Below, one piece after another: positions 28,121 through 39,877 of a DNA stretch of 64,000 nt. This DNA comes from Myxococcota bacterium. GTDB taxonomy: Bacteria > Myxococcota_A > UBA9160 > SZUA-336. The notes under the pieces were generated by a model that did not search any database, had not been told where the DNA came from, and saw only the letters and a program-made list of their open reading frames with translations. The position numbers and the translations under genes were made by a program. The DNA lies in assembly GCA_965247115.1 (NCBI GenBank), contig CBDFGR010000002.1:2144001-2208000 (forward strand), in the 5' to 3' direction. Within the stretch, counting starts at the first letter, position 1, and every line of letters starts with the position of its first letter.

Positions 28121-30220
28121 ATGCACTGCGGCGTAAGTCTTCTAGCAGCCATCACCGTTCTGCTGCTGCCGAGTGTCGAGCTGTCTGCGCAGGAAACCGA
28201 GCCTTCCGCCGTTGCGCAGACGGAAGCGCAAGGGGCGATCGAGGAGATCATCGTCACCGCGGAACGGCGCCCCACCGTTCTGCTGGAGACTCCGGCGTCC
28301 ATCTCCGTGGTCTCGGCCGAGGAGATCCTGACCGCCAGGCCCGCGCTGGGGCTCGACGAGGCCCTCGACATGGTGCCCGGCGTCTTCGCGCAGTCCGCAC
28401 GCAACTTTTCGCAGGACACGCGCGTCTCGATTCGCGGTTTCGGTTCGCGCGCGGAGTTCGGCGTGCGCGGCATAAAGGTGCTCGTCGACGGAGTGCCGAA
28501 CACGCTGCCGGACGGCCAGACAGAGCTGGACTCGCTCGAGCTGGATTTTGTCGATCGCATCGAGGTCGTCCGCGGTCCGGTCTCGTCCCTCTACGGAGGC
28601 GGTGGCGGCGGCCTGATCTCGGTCTCCACGATCGAGCCGAGCCCAGAGCCACGGGTCACGCTCCGCACCCTGTTCGGTACGGACCACCTATCGAAGTACT
28701 CGGCGACCGTCACTGGAACCCACGGGGCGACGGGCTACGCAGCCGGCCTGGTCAGGACGCGGCAGAGCGCCTACCGGGACCACAACCGCGCGGAGCAGAC
28801 GGTGCTCATGACGAAGCTCCGGCGCGAGATCGAGGGGGGGGCGCAGCTCGGCCTGAACTTCTCCGCGGTCTGGGCGCCGGAAGCGCAGGATGCGGGGGGG
28901 CTCAGGGCCACGGAGGTGTCCGCGGATCGGAAGCAAGCGCGCTCGGCGAACGTCATCCGCGATGCGGGGGAGAAGCTCAACCAGCAGAAGCTGTCGGTCT
29001 CCCTGCGGCAACCGCTCGGTCAGGATCACGAGGTCAAGGCTGTCGCGTACGTGGTCTGGCGCGATTTCTCGAACTCGCTCCCGATCGACCGCCGGGTCGA
29101 CTTCGACCGGACGATCACGGGGGGTTCCCTCCAGTATCTGGGTGCCTCCGGCATCGTCAGCTGGATTGCCGGCCTCGACGTGGACATTCAGAAGGACAGG
29201 CGGCGCAACTACAGGAACGAGTTTGGCGCACGCGGGGACCTCACGCTGAGCCAGTCAGAGACCGTGCGCGCCGTCGGTCCCTTCGCGCAGGTCGAGGTCG
29301 CCTTACCCCACGACTTCAGTGTGGTGGCGGGCGCGCGCTACGACTGGGTCGAGTTTGTCGTCGGGGATCGTTTCGTGACCCCGACAAACGGAGACCGCTC
29401 CGATCGCATGCGCTTTCGCGAGCTCTCGCCGCGCCTCGGCATACACTGGGGGCGAAGCCCGGCGCTGCAGCTCTACGCCAATCTGGCCACGGGATTCCGC
29501 GTGCCCACCACGACCGAGCTGTCCCCTTCCGATGCCAACGGTGGCTTCTCTTCGGACCTCGATCCCGAGCGGAGCGTCGGGCTCGAGGTCGGTGCCAAGG
29601 GTCTGCTGTGGGAACGGATCTACTACGACCTGGCGCTCTTCGATATGCGGATCGACGACGTGGCCGTCGAGTTCGAGGATCCGACCGGGCAGTCCCTGTT
29701 CCGAGACGCAGGCGAAGCGCGACGACGTGGTGTGGAGTTCGCGTTCTCCGCATCCCTGACGCCAGGCCTCAGCATGCGCGCGGGCTACACGTACGCGGAT
29801 TATCGCTACAAGGACTTCAAGGTCATCGGAACAACAACGGAGTTCGACGGGAACCGCGAGCCCAACACGCCAAAGCACAGCGTTACTGCGGAGCTGCGTG
29901 GCGAGCTACCCTCGGGCGTCTACGGCACACTCGCGCTTCGCCACTTCTCCGACATCGAGGTGAACGACGCGAACTGCGCTGAGAGCTCTGGGTCGACGCT
30001 CTCTGACGCGCGTGTGGGCTGGCAGCTGGAACGAGGAGACACGATCTTCGAGTCCTTCCTCGGCGCGCGAAACTGGAGCGGTGCGCGCTTCAACGGCTCC
30101 CTTCGACCGAACTCCTTCTCGATCTTCAACCCGGACACTTGCAGGGTGATCGTCCCGGGTCGCTACTACGAGCCGGCTCCAGAGACCGAGCTGTACATGG
30201 GAGTGCAGGTCCGCTTCTGA
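28121..30220 (+). CDS. TonB-dependent receptor
   Basis: Signal peptide, TonB box EEIIVTA, plug IRGFG/LVDGVP/IEVVRGP, C-terminal VQVRF. Confidence 0.95.
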   Translation: MHCGVSLLAAITVLLLPSVELSAQETEPSAVAQTEAQGAIEEIIVTAERRPTVLLETPASISVVSAEEILTARPALGLDEALDMVPGVFAQSARNFSQDTRVSIRGFGSRAEFGVRGIKVLVDGVPNTLPDGQTELDSLELDFVDRIEVVRGPVSSLYGGGGGGLISVSTIEPSPEPRVTLRTLFGTDHLSKYSATVTGTHGATGYAAGLVRTRQSAYRDHNRAEQTVLMTKLRREIEGGAQLGLNFSAVWAPEAQDAGGLRATEVSADRKQARSANVIRDAGEKLNQQKLSVSLRQPLGQDHEVKAVAYVVWRDFSNSLPIDRRVDFDRTITGGSLQYLGASGIVSWIAGLDVDIQKDRRRNYRNEFGARGDLTLSQSETVRAVGPFAQVEVALPHDFSVVAGARYDWVEFVVGDRFVTPTNGDRSDRMRFRELSPRLGIHWGRSPALQLYANLATGFRVPTTTELSPSDANGGFSSDLDPERSVGLEVGAKGLLWERIYYDLALFDMRIDDVAVEFEDPTGQSLFRDAGEARRRGVEFAFSASLTPGLSMRAGYTYADYRYKDFKVIGTTTEFDGNREPNTPKHSVTAELRGELPSGVYGTLALRHFSDIEVNDANCAESSGSTLSDARVGWQLERGDTIFESFLGARNWSGARFNGSLRPNSFSIFNPDTCRVIVPGRYYEPAPETELYMGVQVRF

Positions 30221-30239
30221 GGGATCGAGGTCGATCGCT

Positions 30240-32099
30240 TCAGAAGATCCCCAGAAACCCATGGCTGGCGGCGGGCTGCGTTCGGAGGGCCCTGGAGACT
30301 TCCTCGTCGGTGATCCGTTCTGCCAGGGAAGCCGCGCTCTCGCCATCCTTGTCTCGATAGCGCTTTGCCGCGCCGGCTTCGAGCAGAACGCGGATGATCT
30401 CTGGGCTGCGGCTCTGGACCGCCAGCATGAGAGCCGTCGCCCTTCGTTCGTTACGTACGTCGACGTCGGCCTCCTTGGCGATCAGCTCCCTGACGACCCC
30501 GAGATGCGAACGAGATGCTGCGATCATGAGCGGTGTATTGCCGTTGCCGCTCTTCTCGTTGCAATTTGCGCCGTGTTGGAGCAGGACGCGCGCGACGCCG
30601 GCAAATCCCTCGTGTGCGGCAAGAGCCAGGGGAGGCCTGTCCGCCTCGTCGCGAGCACTCAAGGAGGCCCCTGCCTCGAGAAGAAGCGAGACAACCCCCG
30701 GCTTTCCCGAGCGAAGCGCCGCGAAGAACGCCTGCCCTCCCACGTCGAGCTCCGCCCCTGCCTCGAGGAGTACGGAAGCGATCCGCACGTCGCCCGAACG
30801 CAAGGCGGCCAGGAATGGCGTGCGACCCTCTCCATCGCGAGCCTCGAGCTCAGCCCCTGCGCCCAGCAATGCGCGTACGGTCGGCTGATCGCCTGCGCTG
30901 GAAGCGAGTATGAGCGCGGTCCTTCCATTCGGGGTCTTCGTCTCGGTCCGAACCCCTGCGGCGAGCAAGATTTCCACGCACTTCGCGCGCCCCCGCTCGG
31001 CGGCGACGTGGAGCGGTGTCAGGCCCTCACTGCCGGCCCTCGATGGACTGGTGCCGTTTCTCAGCAACGCGCGGACCAGCTCGGACTCCCCTGCTGCAGC
31101 GGCCCTCAGCAGAGCGGCTCCACCGTCACCCCTGCGAACTACCGCCTTGACCTGGGAGTCTGCAGAATCCCTCGGCTCTTCCGTCCGACCCCCTCCGGCT
31201 CGGCGCAACGCTGCAACGATGGCGGCGTTTCCTCGCGCAGTGGCGACGTCTAAGGCCGTCTCGCCGTCGGCGTTTCTGTGGCCGGGATCGGACCCGGCAC
31301 GGAGCAATAGGTTGACGAGCTTCGAGTGGCTCCTCTGTGCAGCGAGGATCAGGGGCGTGTTTCCATAGCGGTCGACCACGTCCTGTGGCACACGGTGGTC
31401 CAGCAGGATCCGAGCCACGGCCTGATGGCCGCCGCTCGCCGCCAGAGTCAGAGCGGAGTCGCCGAAGCTGTCGCGCATCAGGGGGTGAGCTCCCGCGTCC
31501 AGGAGAAACGCGACCGCCTCGTGGTGGCCCGCGGCTGCAGCGATGACCAGGAGCGTTCTGCCGTCCTCATCGCGTGTATCCGGTGATGAGCTCGCCGCGA
31601 TCAGCTGCTCGAGGTCTCCCACGGCTCCCGTAGAAGCGGCGCGCCGCAGGGACGCCTCGGCATCTGCACTGGCCAGTCGATCGGGAAGCGACTTCTCTAG
31701 CGTTCCGAGGCGTTCGCGAGCCTTGCGATGTCCTTGCTCTGCAGCACGGCCAAGCCAGAGGGCGGCGTCCGCGAGATCTGCTGTGACTCCCGTGCCGTTC
31801 AGGTAGCAGAGGCCAAGGCTGTACTGGGCCTTTGCATGCCCGGCTCGGGCGGCCCGAGAATACAGCGCGTAAGCCCGCTTCGCGTCCTTCCGGACGCCCT
31901 GACCGGAGCGATACAGGGCCCCGAGGTGGTACTCGGCCTCCCGATCGCCTTGCCGGGCCAGCGTCTGCCAGATGGCCGCAGCTCTGGCCGGGTCCCCTCG
32001 ACGGATCGCGGTGAAGCCATCTTCGAGGTCCTGGCCGTGCGCTGGTAGCCCGAAGCTCGCGGCGAGGAGTGTCAGTCCGAGTCCGCTACGGAATCCCAT
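30240..32099 (-). CDS. Exported Sel1-repeat + ankyrin-repeat protein
   Basis: Signal peptide (..PAHG/Q), AEYHLGALY.SGQGV and AQYSLGLCY.NG.GV Sel1 repeats, about 13-14 G.TPL..AA..G ankyrin repeats. Confidence 0.92.
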   Translation of the reverse strand: MGFRSGLGLTLLAASFGLPAHGQDLEDGFTAIRRGDPARAAAIWQTLARQGDREAEYHLGALYRSGQGVRKDAKRAYALYSRAARAGHAKAQYSLGLCYLNGTGVTADLADAALWLGRAAEQGHRKARERLGTLEKSLPDRLASADAEASLRRAASTGAVGDLEQLIAASSSPDTRDEDGRTLLVIAAAAGHHEAVAFLLDAGAHPLMRDSFGDSALTLAASGGHQAVARILLDHRVPQDVVDRYGNTPLILAAQRSHSKLVNLLLRAGSDPGHRNADGETALDVATARGNAAIVAALRRAGGGRTEEPRDSADSQVKAVVRRGDGGAALLRAAAAGESELVRALLRNGTSPSRAGSEGLTPLHVAAERGRAKCVEILLAAGVRTETKTPNGRTALILASSAGDQPTVRALLGAGAELEARDGEGRTPFLAALRSGDVRIASVLLEAGAELDVGGQAFFAALRSGKPGVVSLLLEAGASLSARDEADRPPLALAAHEGFAGVARVLLQHGANCNEKSGNGNTPLMIAASRSHLGVVRELIAKEADVDVRNERRATALMLAVQSRSPEIIRVLLEAGAAKRYRDKDGESAASLAERITDEEVSRALRTQPAASHGFLGIF

Positions 32100-32107
32100 A
32101 CGTTACG

Positions 32108-34192
32108 TCAGAAGTCATAGCGGCCCCCGACATTGACGAAGTACTCCGTCTCGTCGGCATCGTTGTCGTTCGCCGTGCCCCTCTCGATGTCCACCCCACC
32201 GTCGAGCTCGAACTGCAAATCGTGCCAGCGGTAGTCGAGTCTGAGCAAAGGCCGGAGCTTCCACTGATCCTCTGAGCCGTCATTGCTGCGGAACTCGAGC
32301 GAGACGCGGGGGCCCAGGCGAAGACCGTCCAGAATCGGGTAGCGAGCGGCGACCGTTGCGGAGTAGCGATCGTTCGTATCGGCGTTGGCGAACCGCAGGC
32401 TGAAGGTCGTAAAGCTCCCATCGACGACGAGGTCTGCTCCCGTCGCGCGAAGCGAGACGTTGTACTCGTTTCCAGTGCCAGGAGTCGCCGGAACGCCCGC
32501 CGATGCCGGCGTGTCCGAGAGCTTGGAGACGGATACGTCTCCCGCGATCTGCCAGCCCGAACCGAGCCGATGAGAGACGCCGAGCGTGGCAGTTCGGGAG
32601 TCGGCGGTGCGATCCTCCGCGAGGTCGCGAATCTGATCCTCATCGAAGAGCGCTTCGAGATCGTCGAAGTCCGCCACGGGCTGGCCTTGTATCGCGTTCC
32701 TCGTGGTGAGGATCGGGCTTTTTCGATGGTCTGCCGACACGCTGACGTTCGTCGAGTCGCCGAGACGCCAGTTGCTGATAAACATCAGGGTGTTCAGCGC
32801 GCTGTAGGAGACGTCGTAGTCTACGAGCGCGAGCGCGAAGGACTGTCCACCGGTGTAGCGAATCTGACCACCGATCGCGGAGCGATCCTCCACGCCGTGA
32901 AGATCCTGTCGAATCGCGAACAGCTGAACGTCCCAGCGCTCCAGGAACGGCCCGATGTCAGCGCTCGTGCCGTAGAAGAAGCGCTGGCTGTTGATTCGGT
33001 TGGAATCGCTGAACTCGACCGGAAAACCGCTGACAATGGAGAGGCGCAACCGCTCTGACATCTGCCTCCACACCTGTACGCCGTCGAAGCGGCCGAGAAC
33101 GCCACCGCCCGAGGCAGATTGCCGACCCAGTCGGGCGGAGTACGCGCTCTTCCTCGACGAGACGTCGATGAACGCCGAGCTGGCGCGTATGGCGTCCTCG
33201 GAGTCGAGCTGGTCCAGCAGGTCATGCCGGTAGGTACCGGAGAAGTTCGTCCGCGCGGAGAACGGCCCCCGCGAATGTCGCGAGCCCAGGAACACGTCGG
33301 AGTCCAGCGAGGAATTGATCGTTTCCGAGCCCGTTACCTCGGTGTCGACCGTGCCCCAGCGATAGAACTGTGCGACGCCGCCGAAGAACGAGTGTTCGAA
33401 GCTCGCCGTCTCGCGCGCTGGTCTCTTGGCCGGGCGCTGTCCGCGGGTCCTTGCAGTTCGGAGCGCCTGCAGGCGTTGAAGCACCCGAGCAACCCCCTCT
33501 GACTCGCGATACGTGGCCAGGTACTCCTCGTACTCGGCACGGGCGTGCGCCAACCTGCCAGCTCGCTGGTATGCCAGCCCGAGCAGCTCCTTTGCCTCGG
33601 GTGCCCTGGGATCGTCAGGCTTCCCGAGCACCTTCGTGAAGAGCATGGCGGCGCGCGGGAAGTCCCCCGCAGTCATGGCCTTGCGGCCCTCCGTCATGAT
33701 GCGGTCGCTGCGCGACGTTCGAGCTCCTTCCTGCTCGCGTAGCAAGATCTGGATTCGTTCCAGGGACGAAGGCTGTGCCACCTTGAATTCAACAGGGCGC
33801 TCGAAGTTGAGAAAAAGTCCTGGGTCCCCCCTGGCGTCGAGGTCGACGTGGATGTCGATCAGGGGGACCAGGTCGCGTGCCCGCCAGACCAGGACCTGGT
33901 CTTCCGCAAGCTCTGAGGGAATATCCTGGGGACTCTCCGCACGGAGCCGGATCTGTAGCGACTCGGACGTGCCGGAAGGAGTATGCGACAGATAGCGGAA
34001 GCGGCCCTCGAGGTGGACCTCGATGACGGTCCAGCTCTGGCTCGGGGTAACCTTGATGCCGCGGATGACGCGCACGGGGGTCACCGCCCTGGCCCGGCTC
34101 AGCGGCGAGAACGTGATCAGCGTGAGGAGCGCAACGCACCAACATCGGCGACTCCTGCTGTGCCGGCGGGCTGTCAGGGGGGGGCGAGACAA
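32108..34192 (-). CDS. Outer-membrane beta-barrel (porin-like) with N-terminal periplasmic and TPR domains
   Basis: Signal peptide, TPR-like AKELLGLAYQRAG..AHARAEYEEYL, alternating amphipathic strands, C-terminal YFVNVGGRYDF. Confidence 0.8.
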   Translation of the reverse strand: MSRPPLTARRHSRSRRCWCVALLTLITFSPLSRARAVTPVRVIRGIKVTPSQSWTVIEVHLEGRFRYLSHTPSGTSESLQIRLRAESPQDIPSELAEDQVLVWRARDLVPLIDIHVDLDARGDPGLFLNFERPVEFKVAQPSSLERIQILLREQEGARTSRSDRIMTEGRKAMTAGDFPRAAMLFTKVLGKPDDPRAPEAKELLGLAYQRAGRLAHARAEYEEYLATYRESEGVARVLQRLQALRTARTRGQRPAKRPARETASFEHSFFGGVAQFYRWGTVDTEVTGSETINSSLDSDVFLGSRHSRGPFSARTNFSGTYRHDLLDQLDSEDAIRASSAFIDVSSRKSAYSARLGRQSASGGGVLGRFDGVQVWRQMSERLRLSIVSGFPVEFSDSNRINSQRFFYGTSADIGPFLERWDVQLFAIRQDLHGVEDRSAIGGQIRYTGGQSFALALVDYDVSYSALNTLMFISNWRLGDSTNVSVSADHRKSPILTTRNAIQGQPVADFDDLEALFDEDQIRDLAEDRTADSRTATLGVSHRLGSGWQIAGDVSVSKLSDTPASAGVPATPGTGNEYNVSLRATGADLVVDGSFTTFSLRFANADTNDRYSATVAARYPILDGLRLGPRVSLEFRSNDGSEDQWKLRPLLRLDYRWHDLQFELDGGVDIERGTANDNDADETEYFVNVGGRYDF

Positions 34193-34195
34193 GCG

Positions 34196-36346
34196 TTACC
34201 AGCCTCCGCTGGTGACCCGGTGCTCTCCGGAACGAGCCTTGTCGATGGTCGAGAGGGTCGCATCCGTATATACGTGGCAGCTTCCGGCACAGTCACGGAG
34301 CTCGCCGGCTGTGTAGAGGATCCTGGGACTGTCGACCTTCTTGTGCGGCCCCGACTCGTAGTCGTTGGTATGGCAGCCTGCGCAATCCGGCTGGTACTGA
34401 GGGAAGTCCCAGGGGACGACCTCGTTGTTCGTCTTGTGGCAGCCCACGCAGCCAGGATTGACCCTATGGTCACCCGGGTAGGCTGCGGAGGCGTGGCTAA
34501 AGTTGATCGGTGTCCACAACGTGGTGTTGTGGCACATCTCGCAATCCAGCATCGTCACAAAGTGGCCCGAGGGTCGCCCGGTCGCCGTTACACCGTTGTG
34601 ACATCCGCCACAGTTTCCCGTGACGTTCGCATGCGTAAAGCTGGCGGGCAGCCACGCGCTCGTCGTGTGGCAGGCCTCGCAGGATGACGTGGTGACGACA
34701 TGATTCGGCGACATACCGGCTGCGTTGATGCCATTGTGGCAGGTCGCGCAGTTCCCAGTGACGCTCGAGTGATCGAAGCTCGCAGGGAGCCAGGCGTTGG
34801 TGTTGTGACAGGCTTCACAGGATGCGGTCGTAACGATGTGATTCGACGACTTTCCTGTCGAGTTAACGCCGTTGTGGCAGGTCCCGCAGTCTGCGCTGAT
34901 CGTAGAATGGTCGAAGCTCGCGGGAATCCAGCCGCTGGTCATGTGGCACGTATCGCAGGCAGCCATGGTTGGCACGTGGTTCACCGACTTGCCTGTGGCG
35001 CTCACTCCGTTGTGGCAGCTCTCGCAGCTTCCCGTGACTGCAGAGTGGTCGAAGCTGGTCGGGATCCAGGCGCTCGTCCGGTGGCATGCTTCACACGACG
35101 CCATCGTTACGATGTGGTTTGCGGACTTGCCGGTCGCGCTCACGCCATTGTGACAGCTCTCACAGTTGTCGGTTATGCCTGAGTGATCGAAGCTCGCGAG
35201 GATCCAGGAGCTCGTACTGTGACAGCTCTCGCAGGATGCCATCGTCACAATGTGATTCGTAGGCTTGCCTACGGCGCTCACGCTGTTGTGACAGCTCTCA
35301 CAGTTGCCGGTGATCCCCGAGTGATCGAAGCTCGTTGGGAGCCAGGCACCTGTGCTGTGGCAGGTCTCGCAAGACTCGGTAGTGACGATGTGGTTCATCG
35401 TCTTGCCCGTGGCGCTCATGCCGTTGTGACAGCTCTCGCAATTCCCGCTGATGCCTGAGTGATCAAAGCTCGTCGGGAGCCATGCCCTGGTCGTGTGGCA
35501 TGTCTCGCAAGGAGCGGCGGTCATGATGTGGCCAGCAGACTTACCCTCGGCGTTGACGCCGTTGTGGCAGCTCTCACAGTTGTCTGTAATGCCTGAGTGG
35601 TCGAAGAGCGCAGGTACGAACGCGTTTGTGCTGTGACAGAACTCGCAAGAGGTGGCCGTCACGATGTGAACCGCGGACTTGCCGATGGCGTTGATGCCGT
35701 TGTGGCAGGTCCCGCAGCTGTCAGTGATGTTCGAGTGGTCGAAGCGCGTTCCCATCCAGGACGTGGTGTTGTGACAGTCCTCACAGATGTTCGAGCTGGC
35801 GATGTGGGTGAGCGACTTCCCCGTTGCTGTCACGCCGTTGTGGCAGCTCAGGCAGCTCCCCGTGATGCCCGAATGGTCAAATCTGGCTGACGAGAAGGTC
35901 ACGGTACCGTGACAGTCCTCGCATGCATCAGAGCTCGGCAGATGCGAGGCTGACTTGCCGACCGCGGTCGCGCCGTTGTGGCAACCAAAACAGCTCCCGC
36001 TGATCTCCGCATGGTCGAAGCGGGCGCCAAACCAGTGGTTCGTGGTGTGGCAGTCGGCGCAGGGCGCTGAGGTCGGAACGTGGTTCTGGGGCTTGTGGCT
36101 CGACGCCACACCACCTACGCCGTGGCAAGTCGAGCACTCCTTCGACGTCCCCTCGAACAGACCTCTGTTGTGGCACGACTCGCAGGCTACGCGCTCGTGG
36201 GCGCCCGTGAGCGGGAAGCTCGTCAAGAAGTGGTCGAAGTCCCGATCCTGGGCTCCGGAGTAGGGCGCGGGTGCCAGAACGATTGCCGCTGCGATGGCTA
36301 GCGCGCCAGCCGGCAATATCAGGAAAGCGAACCCACGCAGAGTCAT
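34196..36346 (-). CDS. 28-heme c-type cytochrome (27 CxxCH + 1 CxxxCH), exported
   Basis: Motifs counted by hand; signal MTLRGFAFLIL...SGA/QD; ATGA overlap with the upstream gene. Confidence 0.93.
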   Translation of the reverse strand: MTLRGFAFLILPAGALAIAAAIVLAPAPYSGAQDRDFDHFLTSFPLTGAHERVACESCHNRGLFEGTSKECSTCHGVGGVASSHKPQNHVPTSAPCADCHTTNHWFGARFDHAEISGSCFGCHNGATAVGKSASHLPSSDACEDCHGTVTFSSARFDHSGITGSCLSCHNGVTATGKSLTHIASSNICEDCHNTTSWMGTRFDHSNITDSCGTCHNGINAIGKSAVHIVTATSCEFCHSTNAFVPALFDHSGITDNCESCHNGVNAEGKSAGHIMTAAPCETCHTTRAWLPTSFDHSGISGNCESCHNGMSATGKTMNHIVTTESCETCHSTGAWLPTSFDHSGITGNCESCHNSVSAVGKPTNHIVTMASCESCHSTSSWILASFDHSGITDNCESCHNGVSATGKSANHIVTMASCEACHRTSAWIPTSFDHSAVTGSCESCHNGVSATGKSVNHVPTMAACDTCHMTSGWIPASFDHSTISADCGTCHNGVNSTGKSSNHIVTTASCEACHNTNAWLPASFDHSSVTGNCATCHNGINAAGMSPNHVVTTSSCEACHTTSAWLPASFTHANVTGNCGGCHNGVTATGRPSGHFVTMLDCEMCHNTTLWTPINFSHASAAYPGDHRVNPGCVGCHKTNNEVVPWDFPQYQPDCAGCHTNDYESGPHKKVDSPRILYTAGELRDCAGSCHVYTDATLSTIDKARSGEHRVTSGGW
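34529..36061 (-). repeat. Intragenic tandem repeat with a 138-nt (46-aa) di-heme unit, about 11 copies
   Basis: CxxCH-NG..A.GK...H..T...-CxxCH-....W....FDH......; hemes 3-25 are spaced exactly 69 nt apart. Confidence 0.92.
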
Positions 36347-37920
36347 CGGGGCGACCTCATCTGGTCCCACCCGTCGGGCTGATGACATCTGGAGCAGTCC
36401 CTTCCATATCTCCCAAGGTGGACATCGTCGCGCTGGTGGCAGTAGCCACAGGTCCTCGAGGTCTGGATCTTCCTGGCCACGGGCTGTGCGTGGCAGTCCC
36501 GGCACGTCTGCTCGACGTGAGCTCCCTCGAGAGGAAAGTCAGTCTGCCGATCGTGATCGAACTGCCAGAAGCTCCATCCGTTCGGGTTGTGGCAGAGCTG
36601 GCAGCCTGGACCGAGGGTCTGCTCGTGAAAGTCGTCGCCCCGGTGGCAGTCGTCGCAGCCAGTCGGAGCATCGTGGAAGGCTGTCGTCGCATGGCAGTCC
36701 TCACAGGTCGCTGCAGCGTGGAGACCCAGGAGGGGGAACCTTGTGAGGTCGTGATCGAAGAAGACACTTGCGCTCCAGCCCGTTTCCTGATGGCACTGCC
36801 CACACTCCTTGCCTTGCTGTCCCTTGTGAACGTCATCTTGCAAGTGGCACGCTTGACAGTCGGTGCCGAGCTTCGACTCGCCGATGGTGCGGGTGTGGCA
36901 TCGGACACACGCAACTTGCTCGTGCAATCCCCTCAGGGGGAAATCGGTAGCGTCGTGATCGAACCTGAGCCGCTCCCAGCCATTTGGTGAGTGACACGAG
37001 TCGCAGGAACGCCCGAAGCGCCCCTTGTGGCTGTCATCCGAGCGGTGGCAGGAGTAGCAGTCCGTCTGCATCTCGACTGCGTACAGATTGCCGGTGTGGC
37101 AGCTATCGCACTCCACCCTTTTGTGCGATCCCACGAGAGGGAAGTCCGTGTCCCTATCGTGATCGAAAGACATCACCTCCCACGCGCGGCTCGAGTGGCA
37201 ATCTTCGCACTTGCGCCCGAAGCGGCCTGAGTGAACGTCGTTGAGCCGGTGGCAGGAGTAGCAGTCCATCGGGGTCTCTTCGAATTGCTCGTTGGGATGA
37301 CAGAAGCTGCACGCGACCTGAGCGTGCCTACCCACGAGCCGAAAACGCGTCTCGTCATGATCGAATCCGATCCGCGTCCAGGACTTCGGGTTGTGGCAGT
37401 CCTGGCACTCATTGCCGAGGTCTCCGTCGTGGGGGTCCTCCTCGCCGTGGCAGTCCACGCAGTCGGACATGGCATCGCGGTGCAGCTCCTCGGAGGGGTG
37501 GCATTCCGCGCACGGCACGCTCTGATGTCGGCCGACCAGCCCGAAGTCCGTGAAGTCGTGATCGAACGTCTCTGGGTCCAGGCCGACGATGTCACCGTCT
37601 CGTCCGATGTGCTCCGTGTGACAGGTGCTGCACTCCATGGCGAGGGCGTTACTCCGGCCGTGGAACCCGCTCCTTCCCTTGACGTCCTCGGCTACGGCGT
37701 CGTGGCAGTCGAGGCAGAGTGAACGCTGTTCTGTCCTCTGGAACGGTCTGTGACAGTTGCTGCATTCCCCCTCGAGGTCCTCGTGGCCGCGTATCACCTC
37801 TCCCGGCATGATGATCTTCTCGAGATCGATGCCTGCAGCAGAACCCGGCGCGACACTGGCCAGGAGGGCAACCCGCAGCACGCGTCGAGCCGAATCAATA
37901 CATGTGGACAGCGAGAACAT
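36343..37920 (-). CDS. 21-heme c-type cytochrome (c7/c3-like triheme modules), periplasmic
   Basis: 21 CxxCH; six repeats of FDH...FPL.G.H....CxxCH...CxxCH...D.H.G..G..CxxCH...W; start may be the GTG at about 37881. Confidence 0.93.
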   Translation of the reverse strand: MFSLSTCIDSARRVLRVALLASVAPGSAAGIDLEKIIMPGEVIRGHEDLEGECSNCHRPFQRTEQRSLCLDCHDAVAEDVKGRSGFHGRSNALAMECSTCHTEHIGRDGDIVGLDPETFDHDFTDFGLVGRHQSVPCAECHPSEELHRDAMSDCVDCHGEEDPHDGDLGNECQDCHNPKSWTRIGFDHDETRFRLVGRHAQVACSFCHPNEQFEETPMDCYSCHRLNDVHSGRFGRKCEDCHSSRAWEVMSFDHDRDTDFPLVGSHKRVECDSCHTGNLYAVEMQTDCYSCHRSDDSHKGRFGRSCDSCHSPNGWERLRFDHDATDFPLRGLHEQVACVRCHTRTIGESKLGTDCQACHLQDDVHKGQQGKECGQCHQETGWSASVFFDHDLTRFPLLGLHAAATCEDCHATTAFHDAPTGCDDCHRGDDFHEQTLGPGCQLCHNPNGWSFWQFDHDRQTDFPLEGAHVEQTCRDCHAQPVARKIQTSRTCGYCHQRDDVHLGRYGRDCSRCHQPDGWDQMRSPR

Positions 37921-38737
37921 GGATGGTGGCTGTGGCGATGAGCATCACGAAGAGCGGCACATGGATGGCGTGCCAGAGGCGAAACAGGCGCTCCCAGGCC
38001 GTGAACCGGACGATGCCGCGAAGGCGTTCGATGTAGAGGCGGGTGGCTGCTCGCTCCTCGTAGAGGACGGGATCGAGGTAGCCCATGCAGCGCCGGCGCA
38101 GTCGCCCGACCCTGAGACCCGACGTCAGCAGGCGCCAGGTAGCGGTGAGCGCGCTGCTCGGTGGGGTGGTGTGGCGGCTCTCGAATGCGGCCAGGGGCTC
38201 CAGGACCTCCGGGAAGACCTCCAGCAGCGGACGCGCCTTGCCCTCGGCCTGAGTCAGCGCCGAGAGAAGCTCGTTGGCCTGCGCCCGTCGTCCATATAGG
38301 CCGTAGTGGACCTTCAAGTACATAAATCGGCCGACGAGACCGCTTCCGGCGACGAGCAGGGTCGAGAAGAGGGCTACGCTGCTATTGGTAGAGCCCAGCT
38401 GGAAGTTCGAGTGGAAGAGGACCAGGATCGGGCCGACCACCCCAAGGACCATGTGCCACCGAAACCAGTTTGGGAGCAAGCCCCAGGTCGCCATGGACGG
38501 CAGCCGCTTTCGGGCCGAGTACAGAAGGATGAGGAACATCGCGCCTGCACCCGCCACTCCGAGCTGGTATCCGAGACCTTCCTCGGGGGTGATGTAGCGT
38601 TCTTCTCGAATCGACCACCCGGCCGCCAGCAGTGCCACGCAGACGCAGGTGGTCATCAGCCACGGCCGTGACACCCCGCGCGTGGGAGCTTGCAGCGGAC
38701 CTCCGGTTCTTTGGCTAGCAGCTCGAGTTTCACTCAA
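37895..38737 (-). CDS. His-rich inner-membrane protein (cytochrome b / ferric-reductase-like TM domain); start uncertain
   Basis: Several hydrophobic helices with His: FRWHMVLG, LFHSNF, LWHAIHVP, IHVLAVH. Confidence 0.75.
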   Translation of the reverse strand: MSETRAASQRTGGPLQAPTRGVSRPWLMTTCVCVALLAAGWSIREERYITPEEGLGYQLGVAGAGAMFLILLYSARKRLPSMATWGLLPNWFRWHMVLGVVGPILVLFHSNFQLGSTNSSVALFSTLLVAGSGLVGRFMYLKVHYGLYGRRAQANELLSALTQAEGKARPLLEVFPEVLEPLAAFESRHTTPPSSALTATWRLLTSGLRVGRLRRRCMGYLDPVLYEERAATRLYIERLRGIVRFTAWERLFRLWHAIHVPLFVMLIATATIHVLAVHMY

Positions 38738-38974
38738 CAGCGGCGACCCACAGCTATCGCTGGCGGAGAGGCGTGAACGTCCCGCCCGTCGTGGCCAACG
38801 CACCCGCTCTGATACCTATCGACCTCCGAGGGGGAACGTGTGAGCCCCATGTGGGGACTCCTGGTAACTCGTCGACTCCCTTCGTGTTGCGGGGTATGCC
38901 AGACTGTCTCTTTCCGCTGGATCAAGCAGAGCCACTCGTTGGCCGCGCGTGCAGGCCCGAAAAGGAGAACGCGA

Positions 38975-39877
38975 ATGCGCATCGCACTGATGACCCTCGA
39001 CCCTACGGCCGGGCTGGACGAGATCGTCCGCCAGGCGAGGGCTTCGGAATCGGACGGGTTCCCCGTGCTTGCCATGCCGAACATCTTTGGCCACGACGCC
39101 ATCGGGGCACTTACCGTTGTGGGCCGGGAGACCGAGCGGATCGAGCTCATGACCGCCGTCGTCCCGATGCACCCGCGGCACCCTGTCGCCATCGCTCAGC
39201 AGGCGCTCACGGCTCAAGCCGCCGCCGGCGGGCGCTTCAGCCTGGGTATTGGCCTCTCACACAAGATTGTGATCGAGAACATGCTGGGGCTGTCGTACAC
39301 GCGGCACGCCGCATACACGCGCGAGTACCTCTCCGTGCTGAAGTCCCTGCTCGCCGGCGAGCAAGTCGCGTTCCGGGGCGAGTTCTTCCGCGTGAACGCC
39401 CAGGTCAGCGTTCCAGACGTCAGCGACGTGCCCATCCTGGTGGCGGCGCTCGGGCCGCGCATGCTCCAGGTGACGGGGGAGCTCGCAGACGGGACGATCA
39501 CGTGGATGACGGGAACGAAGACCCTCGAGGGCTTCACGGTTCTGGCAATCCGTGCGGCCGCTGAGGCGGCGGGTCGGCCCGAGCCGCGGGTCGTGGCGGG
39601 GTTCCCGATCGCGCTCACGAGTGACGCAGCCCGCGCCCGCGAGGAGGCCAGCAAGATCTTTCAGATGTACGGGACGCTTCCGTCCTATCGCGCGATGCTG
39701 GATCGCGAAGGCCTCAATAGCCCGGGCGACGTGGCCATCGTCGGCGACGAGTCCGCGCTGCGCGCCGAGCTGGGACGGCTCCGCGATGCGGGCGTGACGG
39801 ACTTCGGCGCGGCGCCGTATCCGGCGGACGAAGGCGCGCCCAAGCGCACCCTGGAGTTCCTCAAGAGCGAGCTCTAA
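38975..39877 (+). CDS. F420-dependent LLM-class oxidoreductase
   Basis: RHPVAIAQQALT, LGIGLSH, AALGPRML, ADGTITW, LPSYRAML; AAGGAG RBS. Confidence 0.88.
   Translation: MRIALMTLDPTAGLDEIVRQARASESDGFPVLAMPNIFGHDAIGALTVVGRETERIELMTAVVPMHPRHPVAIAQQALTAQAAAGGRFSLGIGLSHKIVIENMLGLSYTRHAAYTREYLSVLKSLLAGEQVAFRGEFFRVNAQVSVPDVSDVPILVAALGPRMLQVTGELADGTITWMTGTKTLEGFTVLAIRAAAEAAGRPEPRVVAGFPIALTSDAARAREEASKIFQMYGTLPSYRAMLDREGLNSPGDVAIVGDESALRAELGRLRDAGVTDFGAAPYPADEGAPKRTLEFLKSEL

Follow-up and report, generated by a model that had tools for sequence, protein, structure and literature searches.

The 64,000-nucleotide window analyzed here, from contig CBDFGR010000002.1 of a genome of the Myxococcota (assembly GCA_965247115.1), contains a five-gene operon that, by published sequence criteria, is a porin-cytochrome cluster of the PCC3 type: genes for an inner-membrane protein (IMP), two multiheme cytochromes c (MHCs), a predicted outer-membrane barrel and a Sel1-ankyrin protein. 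Comparison with related loci suggests that such clusters are outward wires that receive electrons from NAD(P)H in the cytoplasm through a membrane-anchored Fe-S/FAD enzyme, and that in this genome an unlinked, foreign copy provides the enzyme in trans; we put the probability of this reading slightly below one half (about 0.47). The PCC3 type is already known, whereas the missing linked flavoprotein gene, the foreign unlinked copy, the variability among strains and the conserved ankyrin accessory are new.

Earlier work names PCC3 as a candidate iron oxidase. The comparison of loci speaks rather for cytoplasmic NAD(P)H as the entry point and for outward flow, a reading that would change the interpretation of PCC3 clusters in metagenomes. 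The IMP family, present in 53 of the 225 genomes of the class (about a quarter), extends well outside the Proteobacteria, where PCC3 was defined. In this genome, the wire occurs apart from the flavoprotein that usually accompanies it, and sister strains free of the cassette exist, so that both the need of the IMP for the flavoprotein and the benefit of the wire to the cell become directly testable.

The operon as a PCC3-type cluster

All five open reading frames (ORFs) lie on the minus strand, in the order IMP, 21-heme cytochrome, 28-heme cytochrome, TPR/barrel protein and Sel1-ankyrin protein (Table 1). This is the order described in the initial annotation of the sequence, and the 49 hemes counted there (21 + 28) are confirmed by the heme-binding motifs. 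Junctions of at most 8 nt, likewise claimed, occur at three of the four gene borders (-4, +3 and +8 nt) but not between the IMP and 21-heme genes, which overlap by 26 nt if the latter starts at ATG 37920 or are separated by 13 nt if it starts at GTG 37881. A contig from sequencing run X1, possibly made from the source sample, matches positions 30222-39500 of the window with zero differences. No sigma-70-like promoter was found at the operon, and terminator-like sites there do not exceed the chance level.

PCC3 was originally found in Fe(II) oxidizers, and its definition comprises four genes, very high heme numbers, repeats rich in T/S/A/G and motifs of the IMP (He et al., 2017; PMC5566968). 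In that description, the median heme numbers are 21 and 34, with 22-39 aa per heme; the IMP of about 300 aa has five transmembrane (TM) helices, SGXXG on TM4 and two WX3HX13H motifs; and the Leptothrix PCC3 porin is listed with 22 TM regions. The window operon contains the four genes in the order of Slit_1446-1449 of Sideroxydans lithotrophicus ES-1, and agrees with the description in its predicted outer-membrane barrel, its heme numbers, a repeat-built, T/S/A/G-rich MHC and the IMP motifs, so that the earlier assignment as PCC3-like stands. The accompanying statement that PCC3 lacks biochemical characterization is matched by later papers, which still call it unverified (PMC9900912; 10.1101/2025.02.27.639646; PMC11429942).

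Both PCC3 clusters of ES-1 (Slit_0867-0870 and Slit_1446-1449) share the four core genes with the window, along with a 21-heme periplasmic cytochrome, a T/S/A/G-rich repeat cytochrome and the IMP motifs, and the ES-1 porins are annotated as SPOR- and TPR-domain proteins, as are the relatives of the window barrel. On visual comparison only, ES-1 peptides listed in a supplement (PMC12016527) agree with the barrel and the 21-heme repeat; these peptides and the annotations tentatively suggest homology to the ES-1 proteins. In contrast to published PCC3 clusters, the window operon belongs to a host outside the Proteobacteria, includes a fifth, conserved Sel1-ankyrin gene that is absent from the main text of the defining paper (PMC5566968), has no linked flavoprotein gene, and resides in a strain-variable cassette.

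Like MtrCAB, MtoAB and PioAB, the operon combines a barrel with periplasmic and outer multiheme cytochromes; unlike them, it has 21 and 28 hemes instead of 10, an outer cytochrome without a lipobox and no MtrB_PioB match. Its inner-membrane component is a predicted cytochrome b-type protein, in contrast to the CymA of Mtr systems. Membership in the MtrAB/MtoAB/PioAB group was rejected given that the barrel has no match to PF11854 (MtrB_PioB) and that the 28-heme cytochrome reaches only 101 bits with the DmsE-family hidden Markov model (HMM), against a cut-off of 192; the MtrC HMM is also weak and below its cut-off. PCC4, defined by three periplasmic MHCs and no extracellular-type MHC (PMC5566968), does not describe a cluster with two giant MHCs, and the "PCC3" of PMC13013709 is an unrelated usage with a different meaning.

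The start codon of the IMP is uncertain within 38656-38737, which gives a length of 253-280 aa. The sequence contains five hydrophobic peaks, SGxxG and two WX3HX13H motifs, both of the latter being present in 62 of 63 related IMPs and SGxxG in all 63. Across 116 sequences H95, H109, H259 and H273 are invariant, forming HX13H pairs on TM3 (H95/H109) and TM5 (H259/H273). The earlier label of a His-rich inner-membrane protein is apt as to the membrane, with five predicted TM helices, and inapt as to composition: there are only 8 His overall, four of them conserved and ligand-type. By the positive-inside rule, the His pairs would constitute an inner and an outer heme site and thus a transmembrane wire. 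In the predicted structure (pLDDT 89), five membrane helices are accompanied by a long helical arm between TM4 and TM5 that is probably cytoplasmic.

Structural comparisons of the IMP are compatible with a ferric-reductase fold, which they do not prove. The top Atlas cluster is "Ferric reductase like" (0.96); PF01794 has no match in the window IMP and weak ones in 4 of the 116 relatives (best E 0.013). Foldseek returned nothing significant with the model, and a wide structural search yielded generic helical bundles only, including the di-heme protein 4D2 (Z 10.3, root-mean-square deviation (rmsd) 2.9, 102 aligned) and STEAP1 (Z 8.2, rmsd 3.2, 119 aligned); no sequence relative of solved structure was found. 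A distant homologue is flanked by a 2Fe-2S protein and a 7-heme cytochrome in a hydrogenase cluster of an Alteromonas plasmid (L181:5974-9457), a case of the IMP family with another Fe-S partner.

The two cytochromes are comparable in density, with 525 aa (25 aa per heme) and 716 aa (26 aa per heme), respectively, and differ in T/S/A/G content, 24% in the 21-heme protein vs 41% in the 28-heme one. In the latter, the spacing between motifs is exactly 23 aa 22 times in a row, far beyond chance. Histidines outside the motifs number 23 and 32, so a second His ligand is possible for every heme. Exactly 21 motifs are found in 36 of 44 related ORFs of the shorter protein, some of the others being frameshift pieces, whereas the 45 related ORFs of the longer one have between 12 and 73. 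Since one length is nearly fixed and the other varies freely, we infer that the 21-heme cytochrome spans the periplasm and the 28-heme cytochrome points outward. Neither has sequence relatives among solved structures, so far as found. The 73-heme relative, of 1825 aa, is from a member of the Sedimenticolaceae (L013:2592-8069).

For the 694-aa barrel protein, which also has TPR matches, AlphaFold2 gives a model with mean pLDDT 88 and pTM 0.64, in which 22 barrel strands were counted from the DSSP output for residues 265-693; the top Foldseek rows are all outer-membrane barrels (ushers and porins), with low TM-scores. The outer-membrane barrel on which the initial annotation hinged is thus predicted. 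Relatives of this protein were surveyed in 80 loci of GTDB genomes and 80 metagenome loci, many of them cut by contig ends. In five of these (L079, L032, L003, L051 and L146) the barrel stands alone or with the outer cytochrome and no IMP module nearby, showing that the outer half of PCC3 can be encoded separately.

The flavoprotein partner and its missing gene

In most related clusters, the IMP is accompanied by a membrane-anchored enzyme of about 440 aa that combines a ferredoxin domain for two clusters with a TrxR/YpdA-like FAD/NAD(P) body. The enzyme resembles TrxR, YpdA and FNR, and a CxxC beyond the ferredoxin part is found in 0 of 59 copies. The closest solved relatives are YpdA/Bdr and TrxR-type ferredoxin-NADP reductases (PDB 7A7B, 7A76 and 3AB1; E 1e-43 to 6e-24), to which the partner enzyme adds the membrane anchor and the two-cluster ferredoxin domain, with His replacing one Cys. 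The combination recalls NOX/ferric-reductase-domain (FRD) proteins and MsrQ with Fre, with which it shares paired His on TM3 and TM5, suited to two stacked hemes, as well as a cytoplasmic flavin partner, fused to the IMP in some relatives. It differs from them in its partner, a TrxR/YpdA-like flavoprotein that carries a ferredoxin domain, in place of an FNR-type NOX dehydrogenase, in the weakness of the PF01794 matches, and in its predicted output, a cytochrome wire.

The gene for this Fe-S/FAD enzyme is present in 36 of 42 GTDB loci and 19 of 22 metagenome loci that bear the IMP. Where enzyme and ankyrin genes both occur, the former is directly upstream of the latter without exception (36/36 GTDB and 20/20 metagenome loci). 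Across 251 genomes of the phylum, 57 encode a full-length enzyme (E <=1e-120, our own cut among 83 genomes with a match) and 56 of these also an IMP-family gene; 19 have an IMP-family gene but no full-length enzyme, and 175 have neither. Within the class, the 225 genomes divide into 50 with both genes, 3 with the IMP only, 6 with the enzyme only and 166 with neither; the three with the IMP only comprise one in which the enzyme gene is frameshifted and two that stop at a contig edge.

Matches to the IMP and to the enzyme share one open frame in at least 18 genomes. The fusion was confirmed in all 12 loci fetched (L182-L193), 11 with the IMP first and one with the enzyme first, and 10 of the 12 lie beside multiheme genes (7 to 36 hemes). 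On an Emticicia plasmid (Bacteroidota), ccsA, the IMP, the FAD enzyme, a 23-heme and a 40-heme cytochrome follow one another in a single run. In ES-1, the PCC3 porin gene Slit_0867 adjoins Slit_0866, which encodes a 430-aa FAD oxidoreductase whose listed peptides fit the family consensus by eye. The literature searched, exclusive of subscription journals and some supplements, yielded no published link of PCC3 to either the flavoprotein or an ankyrin protein.

The Sel1-ankyrin gene is found in 35 of 42 GTDB and 15 of 22 metagenome loci with an IMP, so what had been called an accessory is a conserved companion, and the operon genes as a whole co-occur widely among the loci surveyed, as the initial annotation required. 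As a guess, the protein could be a periplasmic assembly scaffold or chaperone. Identification as a Dot/Icm effector or MzaA was rejected: NCBIfam scores are far below the cut-off and the repeats are generic.

In the window operon, the enzyme gene is absent. It lies between the barrel gene and the same-strand downstream ankyrin gene, in a space of 1.3-1.5 kb, in 12 of 12 loci with that layout, and in a genome of the same family (G013) one contig end carries the IMP, 21-heme and long cytochrome genes and another the long cytochrome, barrel, enzyme and ankyrin genes. Because only an 8-nt gap remains at this position in the window, the FAD gene appears to have been lost from the slot. A contig of a relative about 88% alike likewise has barrel and ankyrin joined, within 416 nt; the metagenome barrel relatives, only 30-46% identical, include none close enough to date the loss.

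The genome nevertheless encodes, on another contig, exactly one full-length member of the FAD family to its one IMP gene (Table 1). No cytochrome lies near this gene, whose GC content is 57% vs 66% for the genome, and its product keeps all invariant columns of the family. The subfamily was seen in no other genome of the class that was searched (best 45%). In the congener G002 (95% complete), neither an IMP nor an FAD-family gene was seen. It is plausible that the unlinked enzyme substitutes in trans for the lost operon gene.

Table 1. Coordinates of the operon, its junction and cassette, and the unlinked enzyme gene (window positions unless a contig of this genome, G000, is given)
Feature	Position	Strand	Description
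Sel1 + ankyrin-repeat protein	30240..32099	-	Pfam Sel1 and Ank; signal peptide-like N-terminus
Barrel/ankyrin junction	32100..32107	-	8 nt; FAD-gene slot in relatives
Outer-membrane protein	32108..34192	-	N-terminal beta domain, TPR helices, predicted 22-strand barrel, terminal Phe
28-heme cytochrome c	34196..36346	-	27 CxxCH + 1 CX3CH; signal peptide-like N-terminus, no lipobox
21-heme cytochrome c	36343..37920	-	21 CxxCH; three-heme repeat modules, acidic, signal peptide-like N-terminus
PCC3 inner-membrane protein (IMP)	37895..38737	-	five predicted TM helices, predicted di-heme b
Whole cassette	30222..38960		missing from empty-site allele of near-identical strains
Solitary membrane-anchored ferredoxin/FAD oxidoreductase	G000:C3:2408757-2410061 (L095:5757-7061)	+	low GC, Bdellovibrionota-like subfamily

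Entry and direction of electrons

The initial annotation described the operon as a complete wire from the quinone pool to the cell surface. The evidence falls short of this: in relatives, the IMP is paired or fused with a cytoplasmic Fe-S/FAD enzyme of the NAD(P)H type that is absent from the operon. Judging from these pairings and fusions, the operon is probably incomplete by itself, and NAD(P)H is more likely than quinol to be the point of entry. Electrons would then pass from NAD(P)H through FAD to the two Fe-S clusters of the partner enzyme, from these to two stacked b hemes held by the His pairs of TM3 and TM5 of the IMP, as in NOX and ferric-reductase domains, then to the 21-heme periplasmic rod and on to the 28-heme rod at or through the barrel, which would deliver them to an outside acceptor, e.g., Fe(III)/Mn oxides or humics. 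With NAD(P)H near -320 mV and a membrane that is negative inside, outward flow is favored, whereas electrons from Fe(II) would have to climb about 0.5 V to reduce NAD(P)+; the outward direction is proposed because it is downhill. Such a wire would serve to dump or deliver reductant, in redox balancing or metal mobilization.

Several observations weigh against this model. The cell would conserve no energy by passing electrons outward from NAD(P)H, and near-identical strains without the operon exist. The operon has no FAD gene of its own, and the unlinked enzyme shares only 38-45% identity with 40 linked copies, which have median mutual identities of 55-62%; in a tree of 49 sequences, including about half of the linked set, it falls in a separate clade (support 1.0) beside Bdellovibrionota-named proteins and, being so divergent, may serve something else. 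The IMP parts of the fusions are only remotely related (E 1e-20 to 1e-29), and no match to the window barrel occurs at the fusion loci. Related genomes are not independent, so the co-occurrence counts overstate the association. Clusters without an adjacent FAD gene are found elsewhere (L016, L036 and L134), and the more expressed ES-1 cluster, Slit_1446-1449, has none, as judged by its two flanking genes. Finally, Slit_0866 rose in late magnetite cultures of the iron oxidizer ES-1 (q 0.018 and 0.003; few spectra), which does not obviously suit a role in export and is the main ill-fitting datum. The fuller scenario, in which PCC3 at large is a quinone-independent, NOX-like wire for NAD(P)H export, the operon flavoprotein has been lost here and replaced in trans by an unrelated, horizontally acquired homologue, and sister strains gain or lose the whole cassette, is possible but, taken in all its parts, somewhat doubtful.

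MsrQ-type ferric-reductase domains can use quinol. If the IMP were a quinone-active cytochrome b, the five genes would form a self-contained conduit from quinol to the surface, with the flavoprotein as an optional extra lost in this lineage. This model of the IMP was proposed by He et al. (2017; PMC5566968), and it accommodates the operon that is intact without an FAD gene here, apparently also in the relative about 88% alike, and the other clusters that lack an adjacent one. The near-universal co-inheritance of the IMP and the flavoprotein and their repeated fusion argue against it, as does the retention of one FAD-family member in this genome while 166 of the 225 class genomes have neither gene; on balance, we regard a quinol-fed conduit as unlikely, if still a serious contender.

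An inward conduit, by which the cell would draw electrons from Fe(II) minerals, sulfur or electrodes, agrees with the discovery of PCC3 in Fe(II) oxidizers (PMC5566968), with the rise of Slit_0866 on magnetite and with the report that in CL21 a PCC3 IMP gene goes up with iron-oxidizing activity. However, both ES-1 PCC3 clusters fall on Fe(II) vs thiosulfate (PMC8788666), and the ES-1 extracellular cytochrome Slit_1448 was reported as undetected. In this genome, the RuBisCO-family match is partial only. Together with the uphill step to NAD(P)+, for which there is no coupling device, these data make inward flow improbable.

That there is no surface conduit at all, both cytochromes being a periplasmic electron store that the barrel merely anchors or assembles, is suggested by the absence of a lipobox from the 28-heme protein, by the 22 predicted strands and lack of an MtrB match in the barrel, and by the fact that the "extracellular" label of the larger PCC3 cytochrome in the literature is a localization prediction, but is hard to credit given the fixed length of the 21-heme protein against 12-73 motifs in the other, as if one rod had a set distance to bridge and the other were free in length, and given that the 28-heme type is near the barrel in 70 of 80 loci.

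The cassette, its surroundings and the host genome

Contigs of runs X1 and X3, from one sample, and X5, from another study, join position 30221 to 38961, skipping 8739 nt that include the entire operon. On the short side of the joint, they extend for 18, 78 and 55 letters, respectively. The X3 contig has 722 nt identical to the window left of the joint and, by subtraction, about 133 other letters in between; the loose end at 30221 is common to X3 and X5. Since the relative about 88% alike has the IMP beside the same flanking gene as the window, loss rather than gain is favored as the origin of the empty site. At the left edge of the cassette, a short inverted repeat (30222-30236) separates the stop codons of the TonB receptor and ankyrin genes, which converge there.

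The empty-site allele in two studies, the mobility of the genome (28 copies of one transposase-like element) and the placement of the flanking genes elsewhere in the congener G002 could also mean that the operon is a stranded, dispensable island, non-conducting after the loss of the flavoprotein and being shed by strains; with five open frames, every ligand motif retained and the same arrangement kept in the relative about 88% alike, there is little to commend this explanation.

The operon is flanked by a TonB receptor gene (28121-30220) and an F420-type LLM gene (38984-39877). Both were rejected as parts of the operon: they are on the other strand, correspond to no conserved neighbor family in the 80 GTDB loci and are kept in the empty allele. 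In G002, they occupy mutually distant sites whose neighbors map to about 1.585 Mb and 0.617 Mb of contig C2 of G000, and the operon region looks like a patchwork. The repeated element is 1.29 kb long with a transposase-like ORF (L177:857-2151), putatively of the IS5-like family; several of its copies lie shortly before the window.

The capacity for cytochrome c maturation, a check proposed in the initial annotation, is present in G000 in the form of ccmE and three further cytochrome c assembly matches; no ResB match was found in this genome, so maturation would proceed by Ccm. Two heme-copper oxidase subunit I genes and a type II secretion system (T2SS) pseudopilin gene are also present, and no convincing MtrB was found in the genome, only a marginal 100-aa match to PF11854. 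From this gene content, we infer an aerobic heterotroph. Other multiheme ORFs of G000, with no relation to the operon in tblastn, are located at C2:191536-193632 (9 motifs), C3:727652-729976 (8 motifs) and C3:507652-510237 (6 motifs).

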